From a virus, in IMG/VR virus record IMGVR_UViG_3300018875_000009, positions 1-43,168 of that record: 43,168 nt of DNA, one strand, 5' to 3'. Below, in pieces: positions 9,145-38,418 of this stretch. Every line of letters starts with the position of its first letter. The stretch's first letter is position 1. Made by a program: the position numbers and the translations under genes. The notes below the pieces were generated by a model. That model had not been told where the DNA came from. It was given only the letters and a program-made list of their open reading frames with translations, and made no database searches.

Positions 9145-9200
9145 GAAGCTAAACTTGAAATGGTATCGCTTCAGATGCTAGATTCCCAATGTCAGCGAGA
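9145..9200 (+). promoter_or_regulatory. Early promoter cassette E: GAAGCTAAACTTGAAA, -35 TTGAAA 9155-9160, 18-nt spacer, -10 TAGATT 9179-9184, leader TGTCAGCGAGA 9190-9200
   Basis: Read directly. Confidence 0.65.
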
Positions 9201-9228
9201 AACGGCCTTCGGGCCGGAAGGGAATCCT

Positions 9229-9885
9229 GTGCAGCGAACCGATAAGGCCGCCGCTTCCGTCGTTGCGGGCATTGCGGCGGGTGCCTTCACCCTCTCCTAC
9301 GAAGCTCTTCGGAACGTCTACCTGGGGAGCGCCGGAAACGGTGACCTCTCCCCCATCTACCCCCTGATAGTCGAAGGGTTTGTCACGGTGGCCGTGTGGG
9401 TGGCCTACCGGCTTCGTGACTACGGCTGGAAGGCCACGGCCTACCCGTGGACCCTGGCGGCCCTCTTCTTCGCCTACTCGCTGTGGTCGAACGCCCTCCC
9501 GGACACCGTTCCGGCCCCGGTCATCCTTGGCGTTCCCTCGGTTGCCGTCCCCCTGGCCGTCCATCTCTTCACGCACCTTCTGAAGAAGCGTGAGCCCGTG
9601 GGGGCCGAGCTGGTCGCCGAGCTGGTCGCCGAGGGCGGCCAGGACGACGAAGAGCCCCTGTCCGATGACCCGTGGCCGGCCTGGGAGCCCCCGGCGGTTC
9701 AGGCCCCCATCTTCGCGGCCTCGGTCGAGAAGATTCCCAGCGTCACGGCGGCCACGGATTCCAGCGCCATGGTCCGCGCCTGGGCGCGTCAGAACGGCTA
9801 CGCCGTGAAGGACACCGGACGCATCCCGGATGCCGTCCTGAAGGCTTACGCGAAGGCTCACGGAGGGGAGTTGGTCACCCCTTGA
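9229..9885 (+). CDS. Membrane protein (DUF2637-like N-terminal helices) with a C-terminal Lsr2-type DNA-binding domain
   Basis: GTG after SD GGAAGGGA. Three or four hydrophobic helices. C-terminus VRAWARQNGYAVKDTGRIPDAVLKAYAKAH parallels the Lsr2 C-terminus encoded at 10020-10352. Confidence 0.65.
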   Translation: MQRTDKAAASVVAGIAAGAFTLSYEALRNVYLGSAGNGDLSPIYPLIVEGFVTVAVWVAYRLRDYGWKATAYPWTLAALFFAYSLWSNALPDTVPAPVILGVPSVAVPLAVHLFTHLLKKREPVGAELVAELVAEGGQDDEEPLSDDPWPAWEPPAVQAPIFAASVEKIPSVTAATDSSAMVRAWARQNGYAVKDTGRIPDAVLKAYAKAHGGELVTP

Positions 9886-10019
9886 AGCTCGGGTGGTGCA
9901 TGACGGGGCATCACGGCACCTGCCCCGTCCGCACGGTAAGTGGAATCGCTTGTGGCTGTAGTTGCCACGCTGGTAAGAAGTCCAACGTAATCGAACTCTT
10001 CCCGAAGAAGGAAAACGCC

Positions 10020-10352
10020 ATGGCTCAGAAGGTCGAAGTGAAGCTGATTGACGACCTCGACGGTTCCGAGGCGACTCAGACCGTCCTGTTCGCCCTCGAC
10101 GGGAAGACGTACGAGATCGACCTGAACGACGGCCACGCGGCCGAACTCCGCGACGCCCTGGCCCCGTACCTCGGGGCGGCCCGGAAGGTCTCTGGCGCCC
10201 GTGGGGGCGTTCGCCGGATCGGGTCGGCGAAGCCCGCTGAAGACTCGGGCACGATCCGGGAATGGGCGCGACAGAACGGCTACGAGGTGAGCGACCGGGG
10301 CCGCGTGCCCGCGAGCGTCCGTGAGGCGTACGAGAAGGCGAAGGCCGCCTGA
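10020..10352 (+). CDS. lsr2: Lsr2-family nucleoid-associated protein
   Basis: N-terminus MAQKVEVKLIDDLDGSEATQTVLFALDGKTYEIDL. C-terminus IREWARQNGYEVSDRGRVPASVREAY (RGR motif). SD GAAGGAAAA upstream. An in-frame ATG at 9900 would add a Cys-rich extension. Confidence 0.85.
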   Translation: MAQKVEVKLIDDLDGSEATQTVLFALDGKTYEIDLNDGHAAELRDALAPYLGAARKVSGARGGVRRIGSAKPAEDSGTIREWARQNGYEVSDRGRVPASVREAYEKAKAA

Positions 10353-11435: not shown

Positions 11436-11445
11436 CCTCCCCCAC

Positions 11446-11499
11446 GGGGGCCGGGCGACCGGCCCCCTTCACCGTGTCAGCGAGGAAGAAGGTTTAAAC
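11446..11499 (+). promoter_or_regulatory. Hairpin + leader motif GTGTCAGCGAG (11474-11484) + SD + GTTTAAAC (11492-11499), with no recognisable promoter
   Basis: GGGGGCCGG/CCGGCCCCC hairpin, then TTCACC-GTGTCAGCGAGGAAGAAGGTTTAAACC-ATG. Confidence 0.5.
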
Positions 11500-11803: not shown

Positions 11804-11807
11804 CCGA

Positions 11808-11835
11808 GGGCCGGGAGACCGGCCCTTTCCCTTTA
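11808..11835 (+). terminator. Intrinsic terminator
   Basis: GGGCCGG / CCGGCCC stem, GAGA loop, TTTCCCTTTACC tail. Confidence 0.7.
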
Positions 11836-11934: not shown

Positions 11935-12117
11935 ATGGCCGTTTCGCTCCACAAGGGAGTTCACCGGTGGGTTCACTTCTACGAGGAGAACCTGACCTTC
12001 TGCCGCTTCTGCGGAACCGTCCTCGACATGGGCGACTCCCCCGCTAGCGACGACTGCACCCCCCTGCATGACGCGCACTGCGCTTGCGACCGGTGCCGAG
12101 AGGTTCGGAACCGCTAG
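11935..12117 (+). CDS. Hypothetical Cys-rich protein (60 aa)
   Basis: ATG after SD GAGAAGGGAAGG and a leader hairpin. CRFCG...CACDRC motifs. Confidence 0.45.
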   Translation: MAVSLHKGVHRWVHFYEENLTFCRFCGTVLDMGDSPASDDCTPLHDAHCACDRCREVRNR

Positions 12118-12126
12118 CGAAACCGA

Positions 12127-12158
12127 GGGGCCGGGAAACCGGCCCCTTCTTCGTTTCC
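12127..12158 (+). terminator. Intrinsic terminator
   Basis: GGGGCCGG / CCGGCCCC stem, GAAA loop, TTCTTCGTTTCC tail. Confidence 0.8.
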
Positions 12159-12265: not shown

Positions 12266-12673
12266 ATGAAGGTCTTTCGAGTCGGCGGAACGACGGACCA
12301 GATCACGACGTGTGAGCTGTGCGGGAAGCCCGAGCTTCGCGGAACGGTTCAGATGATCGAGCTTGACGCGGACGGGAACGACTTCGCAGACCACTACTTC
12401 GGCACTAGCTGTGCGGCGAAGGCCGCCGGGTGGACGCAGAAGGATGTGAGGCTGGCGGCCAGGGCCGCCGACCGGGCGAAGAAGGAAGCCGCCGAAAAGG
12501 CGCGGCGGGAAGCCGAGTACGAAGAGATGGTTCACCGCAACAAGGCCATGGACTGGTGGCTTCAGGAGAACTTCGGGACGGACGACATACACGAAGCGGC
12601 GAAGATCGCCGGTATGAGCTTCGTCCGCCTGTCCTGCGCTTTCAGCGACGAATACGCGCGCTGCCAGCCGTAG
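12266..12673 (+). CDS. Hypothetical protein (135 aa) with N-terminal CxxC and a charged helical middle
   Basis: ATG after SD AAGAGGGGAA. High GC3. Confidence 0.6.
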   Translation: MKVFRVGGTTDQITTCELCGKPELRGTVQMIELDADGNDFADHYFGTSCAAKAAGWTQKDVRLAARAADRAKKEAAEKARREAEYEEMVHRNKAMDWWLQENFGTDDIHEAAKIAGMSFVRLSCAFSDEYARCQP

Positions 12674-12682
12674 AGAACACAG

Positions 12683-12710
12683 AAGGGGCGGCCCACGGGG
12701 GCCGCCCCTT
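12683..12710. terminator. Bidirectional terminator between convergent genes
   Basis: 11-bp stem AAGGGGCGGCC / GGCCGCCCCTT with a 6-nt loop. Confidence 0.7.
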
Positions 12711-12763
12711 CTGCCTTGCTCGCACCGCCCGCCGGGGGGACTGGACACGGGCGGGGAGCTGGT

Positions 12764-13000
12764 CTAGGTGATCCGAGGCTCACCCGGTAGCGGGTCCGTG
12801 CCGACCGGCCGCGTGTCCTCGGGGTGTCCGTAGCTCTTGTGCACTGCCATGGCGTTAGCGGCCCTCTGGGCGGCCTGGGGGTCACCCTTCCGGGAGACCT
12901 CCCGAAGTCGCTTCACCAGCTTCGCGCACTGAAGGCAGTCTTTCGGGTCCACGTCGCCCCCGCGCGGGGCAACGAGACTCAACAGTTCTTCAACCGACAC
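12764..13000 (-). CDS. Small CxxC-x28-H protein, paralog 3 of a tandem family
   Basis: GTG after SD GGTGAGGAAAA. CLQC...KG...VH aligns with the two upstream paralogs. Confidence 0.55.
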   Translation of the reverse strand: MSVEELLSLVAPRGGDVDPKDCLQCAKLVKRLREVSRKGDPQAAQRAANAMAVHKSYGHPEDTRPVGTDPLPGEPRIT

Positions 13001-13009
13001 GGCTTTTCC

Positions 13010-13249
13010 TCACCACTTCCAGCCGTCGAGAAGGCCGCCCGCACACCGGCAACGCACCTTCGTGCGCCCCTGACAGGTCGAGCAACCATCGAAGCCCGCA
13101 CAGTCCGGGCACCAAACTTCCCGGTGACCGAAGCACTCGCCACAGATGGTGGCGTTCTCGATCATCCACTGAACGACCGAGGGGCGACCGAAGGACGTGT
13201 AGCCGGTACGGCCCGCGCGCTTCTTCGGCCGCTCCGGGGCCGTAGTCAC
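13010..13249 (-). CDS. DnaJ-type zinc-finger (CxxCxGxG repeat) mini-protein
   Basis: CGECFGH, CPDCAGFDG and CSTCQGR repeats. GTGA-coupled start at 13249 (the ORF track allows 13270). Confidence 0.55.
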   Translation of the reverse strand: MTTAPERPKKRAGRTGYTSFGRPSVVQWMIENATICGECFGHREVWCPDCAGFDGCSTCQGRTKVRCRCAGGLLDGWKW

Positions 13250-13449
13250 TTCGCGGCCCCATGGGTGCACTGCCGGATGTTCCGGGCCGCTTCGAACCGG
13301 GCCGAGGCATCGCCGGCCGCTATGGCGTCACGTAGCTTCTCGGCTTCCGCCTTACAGCGGCGACACCCCTTCTTCGGCTTTGCTTCGTACAGCCACGCGT
13401 CTAGCGGCAGGTCGACCGGCGGGCCGCCGTAGGCAGGCGGATCGGTCAT
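13246..13449 (-). CDS. Small CxxC-x28-CxH protein, paralog 2
   Basis: ATGA-coupled start at 13449. CRRC...AG...IRQCTH. Confidence 0.5.
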   Translation of the reverse strand: MTDPPAYGGPPVDLPLDAWLYEAKPKKGCRRCKAEAEKLRDAIAAGDASARFEAARNIRQCTHGAAK

Positions 13450-13658
13450 CCCGCCACCCCCAGGGCGGGGAGCTGTCGCCCCACGGCCCGCACCCGGTGC
13501 GGGTGATTCCTGATCTCCGCATTGGCGTACGCCACGGCTTCCGGAACCCCGGCTTCGCGGGCAATCTCCCGAGACTCCGCCTGAATCGCGCACTCTCCGC
13601 ACCCCTCGACCGCGACCGGTTCGAGGGGGGTCACTTCGGCAACTTGCTTCGCAGACAT
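13446..13658 (-). CDS. Small CxxC-x28-HxH protein, paralog 1
   Basis: ATG 13658 follows the minus-strand leader GTCAGCGAGAGG. CGEC...AG...IRNHPH. Confidence 0.5.
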   Translation of the reverse strand: MSAKQVAEVTPLEPVAVEGCGECAIQAESREIAREAGVPEAVAYANAEIRNHPHRVRAVGRQLPALGVAG

Positions 13659-13666
13659 GCCCTGGC

Positions 13667-13689
13667 CTCTCGCTGACGTTGTCGCTCTA
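13667..13689 (-). promoter_or_regulatory. Minus-strand -10 (TAGAGC, 13684-13689) plus leader motif GTCAGCGAGAG (13667-13677) for the divergent small-gene operon
   Basis: The reverse complement reads TAGAGC-GACAAC-GTCAGCGAGAGG-CCAGGGC-ATG. No clear -35. Confidence 0.5.
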
Positions 13690-13713
13690 CGCAACCGCGC
13701 CGTAGCCCGCGGC

Positions 13714-13738
13714 GGTACCTTTGGAGAGTCAGCGAGGG
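13714..13738 (+). promoter_or_regulatory. Fused partial motif pair GGTACCTTTGGAG + AGTCAGCGAGGG upstream of the HTH-TPR gene
   Basis: Read directly; 31 nt upstream of ATG 13769. Confidence 0.45.
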
Positions 13739-13768
13739 TGGAAAGCGTGGAAAGTTCGGGGGTAGGGC

Positions 13769-37061: not shown

Positions 37062-37331
37062 TCACGGCTGCTGTTGCTCGGGGTTCCAATCTTCGATTGC
37101 CACAACCGCGTGCTTGCTGGCGGGGGCCTTCCGCGGCTTCGGGGCCTTCCGGTCGGTCCCCAGGTCATACAGCTCGACCAGGGGCGCCTTATGCTCGCCG
37201 CACAGGTCCACGTCCTTCGGCTTGCCCCCTCGGCTGACCGTGAAGCCCTCGACCTCTTCGTCACTGCCGCACACGTCGCACCGAGCTAGCTCGATCAGTT
37301 CTCTAACCACGGCCCGCCCTCCTCTCGTCAA
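37062..37331 (-). CDS. Small protein resembling a Cys-substituted Lsr2 N-terminal domain, with a basic PKPRKAP tail
   Basis: By eye, CDVCGSDEEVEGFTVSRGGKPKDVDLCGEHKAPLVELY aligns with Lsr2 DDLDGSEATQTVLFALDGKTYEIDLNDGHAAELRDAL. Lies downstream of int. Confidence 0.45.
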   Translation of the reverse strand: MTRGGRAVVRELIELARCDVCGSDEEVEGFTVSRGGKPKDVDLCGEHKAPLVELYDLGTDRKAPKPRKAPASKHAVVAIEDWNPEQQQP

Positions 37332-38418
37332 GCGGGATGATCTTACCGCCGTCCTGTCCAGCGGTCAGGAACGGCTGTCCCTTCATCATCTGCGCGTACT
37401 TCTGCCGCTCGATATCCAATCCTAGGTACCGCTCGGTCGTGCTCACCTCCTTGTGGTTCAGGGCCGCCTGCACGATCCGAAGGGCGTAGTCATGGCCCTT
37501 GTGGACCAGGGAGTCATAGAGGATGCGCGCGAAGGAACGGCGAAGCGTGTGCCACGCGTCCCCAGGGTCAAGCTCGATGCCGGCCTTCTCGGCAACGTCC
37601 TTGATGATGTAGGTCGGGTGAGTGATCCACCCCTCGGGGTTGAGTCGGCGAACCGGGTCCGGTACCTGGGCGTGACCGGCTATGAACTTGCGCTTGTGGC
37701 ACACCGGGAACAGGTAGTAGGACCGCTTCAGCGTCCCGACCTCTTCCGTGTAGATGCGAAGCCACTCCCGAAGCTCCCGCTCAAGGTCGAGCGACAGGGG
37801 AACCGTTACCTCTTCCTTCGTCTTCGGCAGGTACACGTACAGCTCCCCCTTGTTGAAGGACACGTCTCGCACCCGCATCTGAACCGCCTCGGAGATGCGA
37901 AGGCCCGTGTTCGCCAGGAAGGCGATCAAGGCACGGTCGCGGGGGTAGTCCGCCGCTTCGATCAAGAGAAGCACTTCTTCCCGCGTCATGCGGTAGCGGT
38001 TCCGGTTGGTCTGGGTGCTCTTCTCCTTCAGGCCCTCGGTCAGTTGCTCCATGGTCCGGAGCGTCCATTCACGGCGCTCACAGAAGCGGAAGAAGCTACG
38101 CATGGTGGCCCGATAGTTGGCCAGGGTGGTGGACCCGCACGTCTCATGAAGGCCGCCAGGGCCGTAGAAGAAGGCTTCGATGTGCTGCGCCCGGAGGGTG
38201 CTTACGTGACAGTCGCCGACATGCACGGCGAACCGTCGAAAGAGGCTCCGAAGGTAGTGCAACGGCCGGCCGTGCCCTACTTGGGCTTCCCGTTGCTCGA
38301 CGTACAGCTTCCCCGCGTAGCTTACTTTTGGAGTTGCAGCCCTAGCCATTCCGAATGTGCCCTTCGTCCGTTCAGTCGACCGCCGTACGGCAGCGCTGAC
38401 CAGCGGCTTCCCAGGCAT
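37303..38418 (-). CDS. int: Tyrosine integrase
   Basis: C-terminal catalytic region: ...GLRISEA..., WHTLRRSFA, ...ALNHKEVSTTERYLG (R..HxxR..Y). Confidence 0.9.
   Translation of the reverse strand: MPGKPLVSAAVRRSTERTKGTFGMARAATPKVSYAGKLYVEQREAQVGHGRPLHYLRSLFRRFAVHVGDCHVSTLRAQHIEAFFYGPGGLHETCGSTTLANYRATMRSFFRFCERREWTLRTMEQLTEGLKEKSTQTNRNRYRMTREEVLLLIEAADYPRDRALIAFLANTGLRISEAVQMRVRDVSFNKGELYVYLPKTKEEVTVPLSLDLERELREWLRIYTEEVGTLKRSYYLFPVCHKRKFIAGHAQVPDPVRRLNPEGWITHPTYIIKDVAEKAGIELDPGDAWHTLRRSFARILYDSLVHKGHDYALRIVQAALNHKEVSTTERYLGLDIERQKYAQMMKGQPFLTAGQDGGKIIPLDERRAGRG

Follow-up and report, generated by a model that had tools for sequence, protein, structure and literature searches.

The stretch of DNA analyzed here (the window) comprises the 43,168 nucleotides of the IMG/VR virus record IMGVR_UViG_3300018875_000009, a temperate Streptomyces phage or prophage with a GC content of ∼63%. 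At positions 12764-13658 of its minus strand lies a single operon of four genes, in the order P1-P2-P4-P3, which encode small Cys- and His-rich proteins (Table 1). P1, P2 and P3 are members of a family of 55-100-residue proteins that is named ZH in the present work and has no curated accession, and P4 belongs to a second family, designated CR_P4. ZH is a previously uncurated family known solely from Streptomyces, and the cassette formed by the P1-type, P2-type and P4-type genes moves as one block between prophages and integrative elements, beside HTH regulators of three architectures.

Organization of the operon and its control region

An earlier note, made from the sequence of the window alone, had described a divergent operon of four open reading frames (ORFs), and all four were confirmed with the same coordinates, strand and sequences. 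The stop codon of P1 is overlapped by the ATG of P2 (ATGA), and that of P2 by the GTG of P4 (GTGA), in line with the translational coupling proposed there for the operon. No such overlap links P3, whose GTG start lies 9 nt past the P4 stop codon and is served by a GAGGA ribosome-binding site. The codon-position GC content of the operon ORFs is coding-like. Comparison with the orthologs in a related contig (L008) gave ratios of non-synonymous to synonymous substitution rates (dN/dS) of 0.22 for P1, 0.26 for P2 and 0.36 for P4, which indicate purifying selection on the mini-protein set.

The operon is transcribed divergently from the gene of an HTH-TPR-type regulator, as had been claimed, and this regulator was found to belong to the NsdA family. 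Its 443-residue product matched NF053720 with 435.5 bits (E value, 3e-130; cut-off, 75 bits) and phrog_10886 with an E value of 4e-72. Homologs annotated as HTH DNA-binding proteins occur in the phages Ponzi, SV1, Raleigh and ToastyFinz; the large HTH protein of Streptomyces phage Ponzi, the closest relative of the window, is 66% identical to the window protein, and no near-identical DNA was found among GenBank phages. The product is the putative switch regulator of the phage.

The control region between the two divergent genes carries the leader core GTCAGCGAGAG on the P1 side, with TAGAGC ahead of it, and GTCAGCGAGGG on the regulator side, together with a direct repeat (AGGGTGGAA/AGCGTGGAA). 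It is highly conserved with respect to L008 and identical over the stretch of the P1 leader and ATG. The “conserved leader” of the earlier note amounts to the 11-nt core GTCAGCGAGAG and the -10-like TAGAGC, which are common to other early promoters, with nothing beyond these two elements. With up to one mismatch allowed, the core occurs 14 times in the window versus 1.3 occurrences expected. In the early region it closes a repeat unit of ∼60 nt, (A)GCTGTCATTTGACA - GTTTAAAC - TAnnnT - TTCCCTT - GTCAGCGAGAG, which reads as a TTGACA/N18/TAGAGT promoter with GTCAGCGAGAG where the transcript is predicted to start; ahead of the P1 operon and of the NsdA-like gene, just the core of this unit is present. 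At the opposite end, a hairpin terminates both the operon and a convergent plus-strand early gene (12266-12673), and the segment 12660-12765 folds with -65.8 kcal/mol (z, -4.4). The promoter elements and the terminator were located through repeats and folding, and a consensus promoter and terminator scan of the operon region returned no matches.

Table 1. Positions of the mini-protein operon, its control elements and other features of the window. Empty cells, nothing assigned; HMM, hidden Markov model; AF2, AlphaFold2.
Feature	Position	Strand	Basis or remark
P1, 70-residue ZH mini-protein, P1-type	13446-13658	-	five homologs, leave-out HMM
P2, 67-residue ZH mini-protein, P2-type	13246-13449	-	HMM, AF2 hairpin
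P4, 79-residue Cys-rich mini-protein (CR_P4)	13010-13249	-	phrog_28723, phage homologs
P3, 78-residue divergent ZH paralog (CLQC-x28-HKSYGH)	12764-13000	-	leave-out HMM
Divergent control region, 110 bp	13659-13768		repeats, comparison with L008
Leader core GTCAGCGAGAG of the P1 operon	13667-13677	-	
GTCAGCGAGGG	13728-13738	+	
Direct repeat AGGGTGGAA/AGCGTGGAA	13735-13752		
Bidirectional terminator hairpin with a GC-rich stem of 15-16 bp and a loop of 4 nt	12680-12713		inverted repeat, fold
NsdA-family HTH/TPR-like regulator, 443 residues	13769-15100	+	divergent from cassette; NF053720, phrog_10886
Tyrosine integrase	37303-38418		24 kb from cassette
GTCAGCGAGAG sites	7223, 8033, 8598, 8944, 9191, 11204, 11476, 11887, 12209, 13728, 39344	+	
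GTCAGCGAGAG sites	7096, 13677, 32421	-	
GGGCCGG-N4-CCGGCCC hairpins	11445-11466, 11805-11826, 12125-12146		3' of small early genes
60-residue Cys/His-rich early ORF	11935-12117	+	CRFC...C..LH..HCACDRC
135-residue early protein	12266-12673	+	CELCG...HYFGTSC
Genes with Lsr2 DNA-binding domain	9160-9885, 9672-10352	+	
90-nt repeat	9768-9857, 10250-10339		71% identity

The ZH family and the P1-P2-P4 cassette

P1, P2 and P3 fit the CxxC-x28-(H/C) register without deviation, and each of them has Gly at position +14. The paralogy claimed on these grounds was upheld by alignment, profile comparison and a leave-out HMM. Smith-Waterman alignment of the three pairs gave z values of ∼4.1-4.5, with an empirical p of 0.002-0.004 for each pair. 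The P1-family and P2-family profiles matched one another with an E value of 9.4e-6 (probability, 83%) in a gap-free alignment of 49 columns that superimposes the two ligand pairs, and P3 matched the P2 profile at 2.5e-4 and the P1 profile at 0.018. The leave-out HMM, constructed from 140 family sequences with the window proteins removed, scored P1 at 4.8e-22, P2 at 5e-22 and P3 at 1.7e-9 (24 bits), and did not match P4. Among the 426 ORFs of the window with 30 residues or more, P1, P2 and P3 were its sole matches (P3 at 6.9e-7, and the next best ORF at 0.012). On account of the profile and leave-out HMM matches, P3 is considered a genuine, divergent ZH member.

Sixteen close homologs were found for P2 and five for P1, and none was found for P3. 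Residues C20, C23, H52 and H54 are invariant in the P1 family, as are C29, C32, C61 and H63 among the 17 sequences of the P2 family. The core of P1 reads LEPVAVEGC-GE-C...NAEIRNHPH and is accompanied by a degenerate C-terminal tail (GRQLPALGVAG), and that of P2 reads WLYEAKPKxGCxxC...ARFEAARNIRQCTH. The proposal that the genes had been triplicated in tandem did not hold: P1 and P2 represent old and distinct subfamilies, and the paralogs are not contiguous, P4 being located between P2 and P3. Since the P1-P2-P4 cassette is co-inherited in other loci, it represents an old unit and not a recent triplication. P3 is an extra, divergent ZH copy specific to the phage of the window, and in no other locus were three intact ZH genes encountered; a second candidate for a triple-ZH locus (L051) was ruled out, the gene in question being a frameshifted remnant.

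The extent of the family was determined with a P1+P2+P3 profile, which was searched against 1.84 billion cluster representatives (E ≤ 1e-3) and returned 173 proteins, nearly all of them 55-100 residues in length; the family thus comprises at least 173 clusters at 50% identity. The pattern CxxC...(H/C)x1-4H is present in 96% of 302 unique ZH sequences, and the spacer is of exactly 28 residues in 279 of them (92%), 204 of which (73%) carry Gly at +14. The distal ligand pair is HxH in 193 of the 302 sequences, CxH (the P2 type) in 49 and H-x4-H (the P3 type) in 17, and the family consensus is LEPvPvxGCxVCxAL...RExAR..GD.S.V.D.NVEIRNHPH. All members with a source name are “hypothetical proteins” of Streptomyces, and all 88 of the 88 loci from GTDB representative genomes likewise derive from this genus.

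The earlier note had not recognized the family, and indeed no curated family was found to cover these proteins in Pfam, NCBIfam, PHROGs, PADLOC, PDB or BFVD. P1-P3 matched nothing above threshold in Pfam, PHROGs and NCBIfam, nor did 143 ZH members in Pfam and NCBIfam. PADLOC gave no match for any cassette or neighbor protein. PDB sequence searches with the ZH family profiles yielded noise only, and Foldseek comparison of the P2 model with PDB and BFVD retrieved generic helical hairpins, all with E > 1. A tblastn search of the PLSDB plasmids with P1, P2 and P4 gave no matches.

The helical hairpin suggested in the earlier note was predicted by AlphaFold2 for P2 on the basis of the family alignment, with helices at residues 30-45 and 48-59 (predicted local distance difference test [pLDDT], ∼85) and the candidate ligands at its open end. 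The CxxC motif caps the N-terminus of helix 1, and the CxH motif comes just after helix 2. In the model, the open end is thus clasped by four candidate ligands arranged as in a structural zinc site, and the ZH proteins are probably zinc-binding, to judge from model and motif. The net charge of the family is ∼0 (mean, +0.2), which is not DNA-binding-like.

By its sequence, P4 is a member of a family separate from ZH that is DnaJ-CR-like at the level of its motif. It had been described as a DnaJ-type protein with three CxxCxGxG repeats; the motif-level resemblance stands, but the final Gly is absent, and the similarity to HMMs remains below threshold (NCBIfam DnaJ, E = 0.26; BSD2 in PDB, E = 0.23; Pfam, no match at E ≤ 1). 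The knuckles of the window protein are CGECFGHR, CPDCAGFD, CSTCQGRT and CRCAGG; the first three have the form CxxCxG but lack the last Gly of the repeat, and the fourth is reduced to CxC, which departs from a consensus of four CxxCxGxG repeats. In all 21 of the other aligned P4-type sequences the fourth knuckle is CPxCxGG, and CRCAGG is unique to the window; this one-codon deletion (13010-13030) may leave the second of the predicted metal sites weaker. The family consensus, CGxCFGHR...WCPxCxGFxGC..C...V.CPECAGG, is preceded by a basic N-terminus (APERPxKPRAGRRG in the family, APERPxKRAGRxG in the window protein). P4 matches phrog_28723, a family of unknown function, with an E value of 5.1e-13 (residues 6-79 of the protein against 4-81 of the 83 profile positions), and has homologs in the phages Diane, Vash, Shady and Andris. 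Matches of P4-family members to GRXCR1-2_C (10 of 17), BSD2_CRD (6 of 17) and Anti-TRAP (2 of 17) were all sub-threshold, with none at the Pfam gathering score. With regard to the V-shaped two-zinc fold of the DnaJ domain, a single-sequence AlphaFold2 model of P4 reached a pLDDT of just 49.5 and was unusable. CR_P4 and DUF7848 both occupy the slot after ZH genes, but homology of the two was considered and rejected (E = 0.19).

P1-type genes lie directly upstream of P2-type genes in ∼30 of the fetched loci, including some in which no P1-type gene had been annotated, and of the 23 unique loci with such a pair, 20 have CR_P4 after it. The junctions within the cassette are mostly 4-nt overlaps. 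A C-terminal tail (GRxLPxVxVWGVxV) is present solely in those P1-type members that are paired with P2 and P4, and the single-copy ZH proteins lack it. In terms of sequence and gene order, the three types constitute an old, translationally coupled cassette in ∼20 Streptomyces loci. P1-type and P4-type mini-genes are systematically under-annotated in public records; uncalled examples are located in L003 (5756-6004 and 6084-6497), in L004 (5483-6004 and 6205-6438) and in phage Vash (L102, MK450421; 3001-3240).

Association with HTH regulators and proposed function

The linkage of ZH genes to regulators was assessed in 79 unique ZH loci, in which an HTH regulator was counted when it ended within 700 bp upstream. 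Three main types of regulator were observed in 60 of these loci: an XRE protein with HTH_31 and DUF5753 (45 loci), an NsdA-like protein (8) and an HTH-TPR protein (7). The XRE-DUF5753 gene is on the same strand as ZH in 43 of its 45 loci, and the NsdA-like gene is divergent in all 8, as in the window. The remaining 19 loci include at least four with other HTH_3 or HTH_31 proteins upstream, one with a GntR regulator and three with DUF6879, in which case the gene precedes that of an XRE regulator. Overall, ZH occurs beside an HTH regulator in 76-86% of the loci. A second Cys/His-rich mini-protein is encoded directly downstream in 49 of the 79, either CR_P4 (19) or DUF7848 (31), one locus having both. 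Homology among the three types of regulator was not sustained, as they have only the HTH in common or show weak full-length similarity.

Four architectures are apparent. In the first, sm1-DUF6879-XRE5753-ZH_P1-ZH_P2-CR_P4 is located beside a phage capsid gene. The second is a mini-element of 4.3-5 kb, serine recombinase-sm1-DUF6879-XRE5753-ZH-DUF7848, in which the small upstream protein (the sm1 slot) has 70-90 residues. It was detected in ∼20 Streptomyces species (L057-L090; e.g., L089:1000-6076 and L058:989-5438), inserted at the 5' end of a gene for an NHL-repeat/thioredoxin-like protein, such that the element is flanked by a fragment encoding the 53 N-terminal residues of the target and, at its other end, by an intact copy. 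The third, in which an NsdA-like gene faces away from one or more ZH genes followed by CR_P4, is that of the window, L008 and the IMG/VR phages L103, L106 and L108. In the fourth, an HTH-TPR gene is followed by ZH and then by DUF7848 or CR_P4; the form with DUF7848 was also observed in IMG/VR phages. Among cultured phages, the ZH gene of Shady (gp66) is two genes ahead of CR_P4 (gp68) and the integrase, and in Diane and Vash CR_P4 is downstream of an HTH regulator of ∼400 residues.

The slot divergent from the NsdA-like regulator varies among related phages. In SV1 (L002, 2943-3910) it holds an ORF annotated as a histidine kinase and a 165-residue protein, and in Ponzi (L001, 5331-5878) a 122-residue protein and a 60-residue Cys-rich protein, none of which is a ZH member. 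The SV1 histidine kinase ORF is presumably reminiscent of the anti-sigma-like ATPases of WhiJ loci. In a chromosomal lineage (L005-L007 and L051), an HTH or NsdA-like regulator is divergent from a P2-type gene, which is followed by genes for a radical-SAM/SPASM enzyme and a kinase-like protein; L051 also contains frameshifted P1-type and P4-type remnants.

The interpretation that we favor, albeit tentatively and at somewhat less than an even chance, is that the ZH and CR_P4 proteins are metal-stabilized protein-binding modules, which would assemble together and modulate the adjacent regulator or its switch. As modules for protein-protein interaction, P1, P2 and P4 would probably assemble with each other, given that their genes overlap and that the P1-type tail is found solely when P2 and P4 are present; they would probably act on the neighboring regulator or on the switch that it controls. 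In the window, the cassette would be driven by the promoter opposite the NsdA-like gene and would antagonize or tune the NsdA-like regulator, as an anti-repressor or co-regulator, with P3 as an extra variant of diverged specificity.

Several considerations weigh against this proposal. The tie between the mini-proteins and the regulator is one of guilt by association in gene order. The proportion of 76-86% overstates the number of independent associations, because many of the loci are probably orthologous copies of few insertions, and the use of patterns derived from P1 and P2 to retrieve the loci biases the sampling. The metal site is a predicted one, in a model that contains no metal and has a mean pLDDT of 69.8. 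Charge complementarity of P1 and P2, considered as a sign of heterodimerization, is weak (-1.2 versus +2.0) and was not relied upon. Furthermore, the same trio occurs beside three types of regulator, which argues against a specific fit to a regulator C-terminal domain and equally allows a target in the host.

The latter point leads to the alternative that the mini-proteins are the output of the switch, host-directed effectors whose expression alone is controlled by the regulator. Their candidate targets would include RNA polymerase, a sigma or anti-sigma factor, a Wbl- or Lsr2-type regulator, or a defense component. The indifference of the cassette to the type of regulator (XRE-DUF5753, HTH-TPR or NsdA-like) and the possession in the window of its own promoter and terminator are consistent with such a role, and the mini-element of ∼20 species carries little beyond an integrase, a regulator and small proteins, which suggests that the latter are its cargo. 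Conversely, no similarity to known host-targeting phage proteins emerged from Foldseek (PDB and BFVD) or PADLOC, and in 43 loci ZH is co-directional with and immediately downstream of the regulator, in the manner of XRE/DUF397 regulator-partner pairs. We consider host-directed effectors rather unlikely, though a serious contender to the modulation of the adjacent regulator.

Comparison with known systems and the surrounding genes

The closest parallels to the ZH and CR_P4 proteins, by analogy, would be the DUF397/BldB-type partners of XRE-DUF5753 regulators and anti-TRAP. In XRE (HTH_31-DUF5753, WhiJ-like)/DUF397 (BldB-like) pairs, which are abundant and paralogous in Streptomyces, a protein of 60-90 residues is encoded immediately downstream of the XRE gene, and the 43 co-directional ZH loci have the same type of regulator upstream. 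ZH differs in that it lacks any DUF397 match in Pfam (P1-P3 and 143 members), carries a Cys/His motif that is absent from DUF397, mostly precedes another Cys-rich mini-protein and resides in mobile elements. In the window, moreover, the regulator is of the NsdA type and divergent, and the layout is thus not that of a downstream pair.

The layout of an XRE gene and a small downstream gene was first proposed to represent type II toxin-antitoxin systems in the case of XRE/DUF397 (PMC10364602). By extension, the cassette could be a toxin-antitoxin, abortive-infection or defense module, with the XRE-type regulator as antitoxin and the small protein(s) as toxin, and its location in mobile elements, including a minimal integrative one, would suit such a module. 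We regard this as very improbable: neither the cassette nor its neighbors had a match in PADLOC, the window cassette is divergent from the regulator and not co-transcribed with it, and none of the 14 XRE/DUF397 pairs examined in S. coelicolor behaved as a toxin-antitoxin system, such pairs being known to act as pleiotropic regulators (PMC10364602).

Anti-TRAP, a DnaJ-CR-like zinc protein, binds and blocks a regulator (PMC2896485). Like anti-TRAP and the other stand-alone DnaJ-CR relatives (BSD2 and the C-terminal region of GRXCR), P4-type proteins contain four knuckles of the form Cys-x2-Cys, in which the second Cys is followed by Gly. In contrast to the DnaJ-CR proteins, P4 has no J-domain, its consensus is incomplete and its basic N-terminal segment is specific to the family.

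The position of the operon, separated by 110 bp from a putative lysogeny regulator with back-to-back promoter elements, resembles that of phage repressor/cro and antirepressor loci, and suggests a fit to the Cro or antirepressor slot, as the earlier note had proposed from gene order. The mini-proteins of the window have no HTH, which makes a Cro-like role unlikely; the regulator is a 443-residue NsdA protein and not of the CI type, and the operon comprises four genes rather than one. A related alternative would have ZH proteins act as small DNA-binding factors, either Cro-like or recombination directionality factors, on operator or att DNA. In addition to the divergent position, serine integrases are encoded near many of the loci, and P2 and P4 have basic N-terminal segments. 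Pfam scans of P1-P3 and of the 143 members, however, revealed no HTH or other known DNA-binding domain. The near-neutral charge of the family likewise speaks against it, P1-type proteins being acidic, and the window integrase is of the tyrosine type and far from the cassette. DNA-binding factors therefore appear improbable.

The anti-sigma domains of the ZAS type (e.g., RsrA) are small helical proteins of actinomycetes in which a His and a CxxC motif hold a zinc ion that stabilizes a helical bundle and can serve as a redox switch. Their Hx3Cx2C signature, accompanied by an upstream Cys or His, contrasts with the reversed CxxC-x28-HxH order and the two helices of ZH. The signature was not found in P1-P4, and HMM comparison detected no similarity to ZAS, the sole related match being CnrY/NccY at an E value of 0.017, below the cut-off. 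It is conceivable, although we give it a low probability, that the ZH and CR_P4 proteins form a new class of metal- or redox-sensing anti-regulator complex, in which CxxC...HxH would serve as a thiol/zinc switch of the kind known from RsrA, Hsp33 or Spx and would tie prophage induction, or the excision of small integrative elements, to the oxidation or metal status of the Streptomyces mycelium. In that event, domesticated chromosomal copies would pass the signal to the regulation of development and antibiotics via XRE-DUF5753 regulators.

The precursors of cysimiditides, actinobacterial proteins of ∼60 residues with CxxCxGxG motifs, also bind zinc (bioRxiv 10.1101/2024.10.02.616296). The mini-proteins could by this token be precursors of peptides that are made by the ribosome and modified after translation (RiPPs), for which the radical-SAM/SPASM gene located after the P2-type gene of L005-L007 and L051 would provide an enzyme, or else arbitrium/RRNPP-type signaling peptides, sensed by a regulator that combines HTH and TPR-like regions as do AimR and Rap. 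Neither a PIMT-type methyltransferase nor another maturase is encoded in the window operon or the conserved cassette, and no methyltransferase or other maturase was evident in the window. There is no signal peptide or leader/core organization, and conservation spans the whole folded core. The radical-SAM adjacency is confined to a single decayed chromosomal lineage. Unlike signaling peptides of the arbitrium/RRNPP type, P1-P3 have polar or acidic N-termini without a hydrophobic signal segment, and their genes are divergent from the regulator. Precursor or signaling peptides are thus the least probable of the readings considered.

Elsewhere in the window are found Lsr2-like genes, a capsid gene, an endolysin gene and two tRNA genes, the latter being the only matches in an Rfam scan of the window. 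Two adjacent genes with an Lsr2 DNA-binding domain, one fused to DUF2637 and the other encoding a full Lsr2, have a 90-nt repeat in common. Near-identical hairpins occur 3' of each small early gene, and the segment of 11.2-12.7 kb is thereby a series of promoter-leader-gene-terminator units. The early genes include a 60-residue Cys/His-rich ORF and a 135-residue protein that is kept in a related prophage (L004), both of which are unrelated to ZH.

A regulator accompanied by small partner proteins is already known as a kind of system; the ZH family and its cassette are new. The family, which across hundreds of Streptomyces mobile elements nearly always adjoins a DNA-binding regulator, is probably a new accessory part of their genetic switches, and its genes, as the present analysis shows, are often absent from public annotations. 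Streptomyces contain dozens of XRE regulators paired with small proteins, the mode of action of which is obscure, and the lysogeny switches of most Streptomyces phages are uncharacterized. In this context, ZH represents another family of small partners, unrelated to the first, with a putative metal site and a fixed three-gene cassette, and the arrangement in the window, with one regulator, a 110-bp control region and a four-gene operon, offers a tractable system for the role of the mini-proteins.

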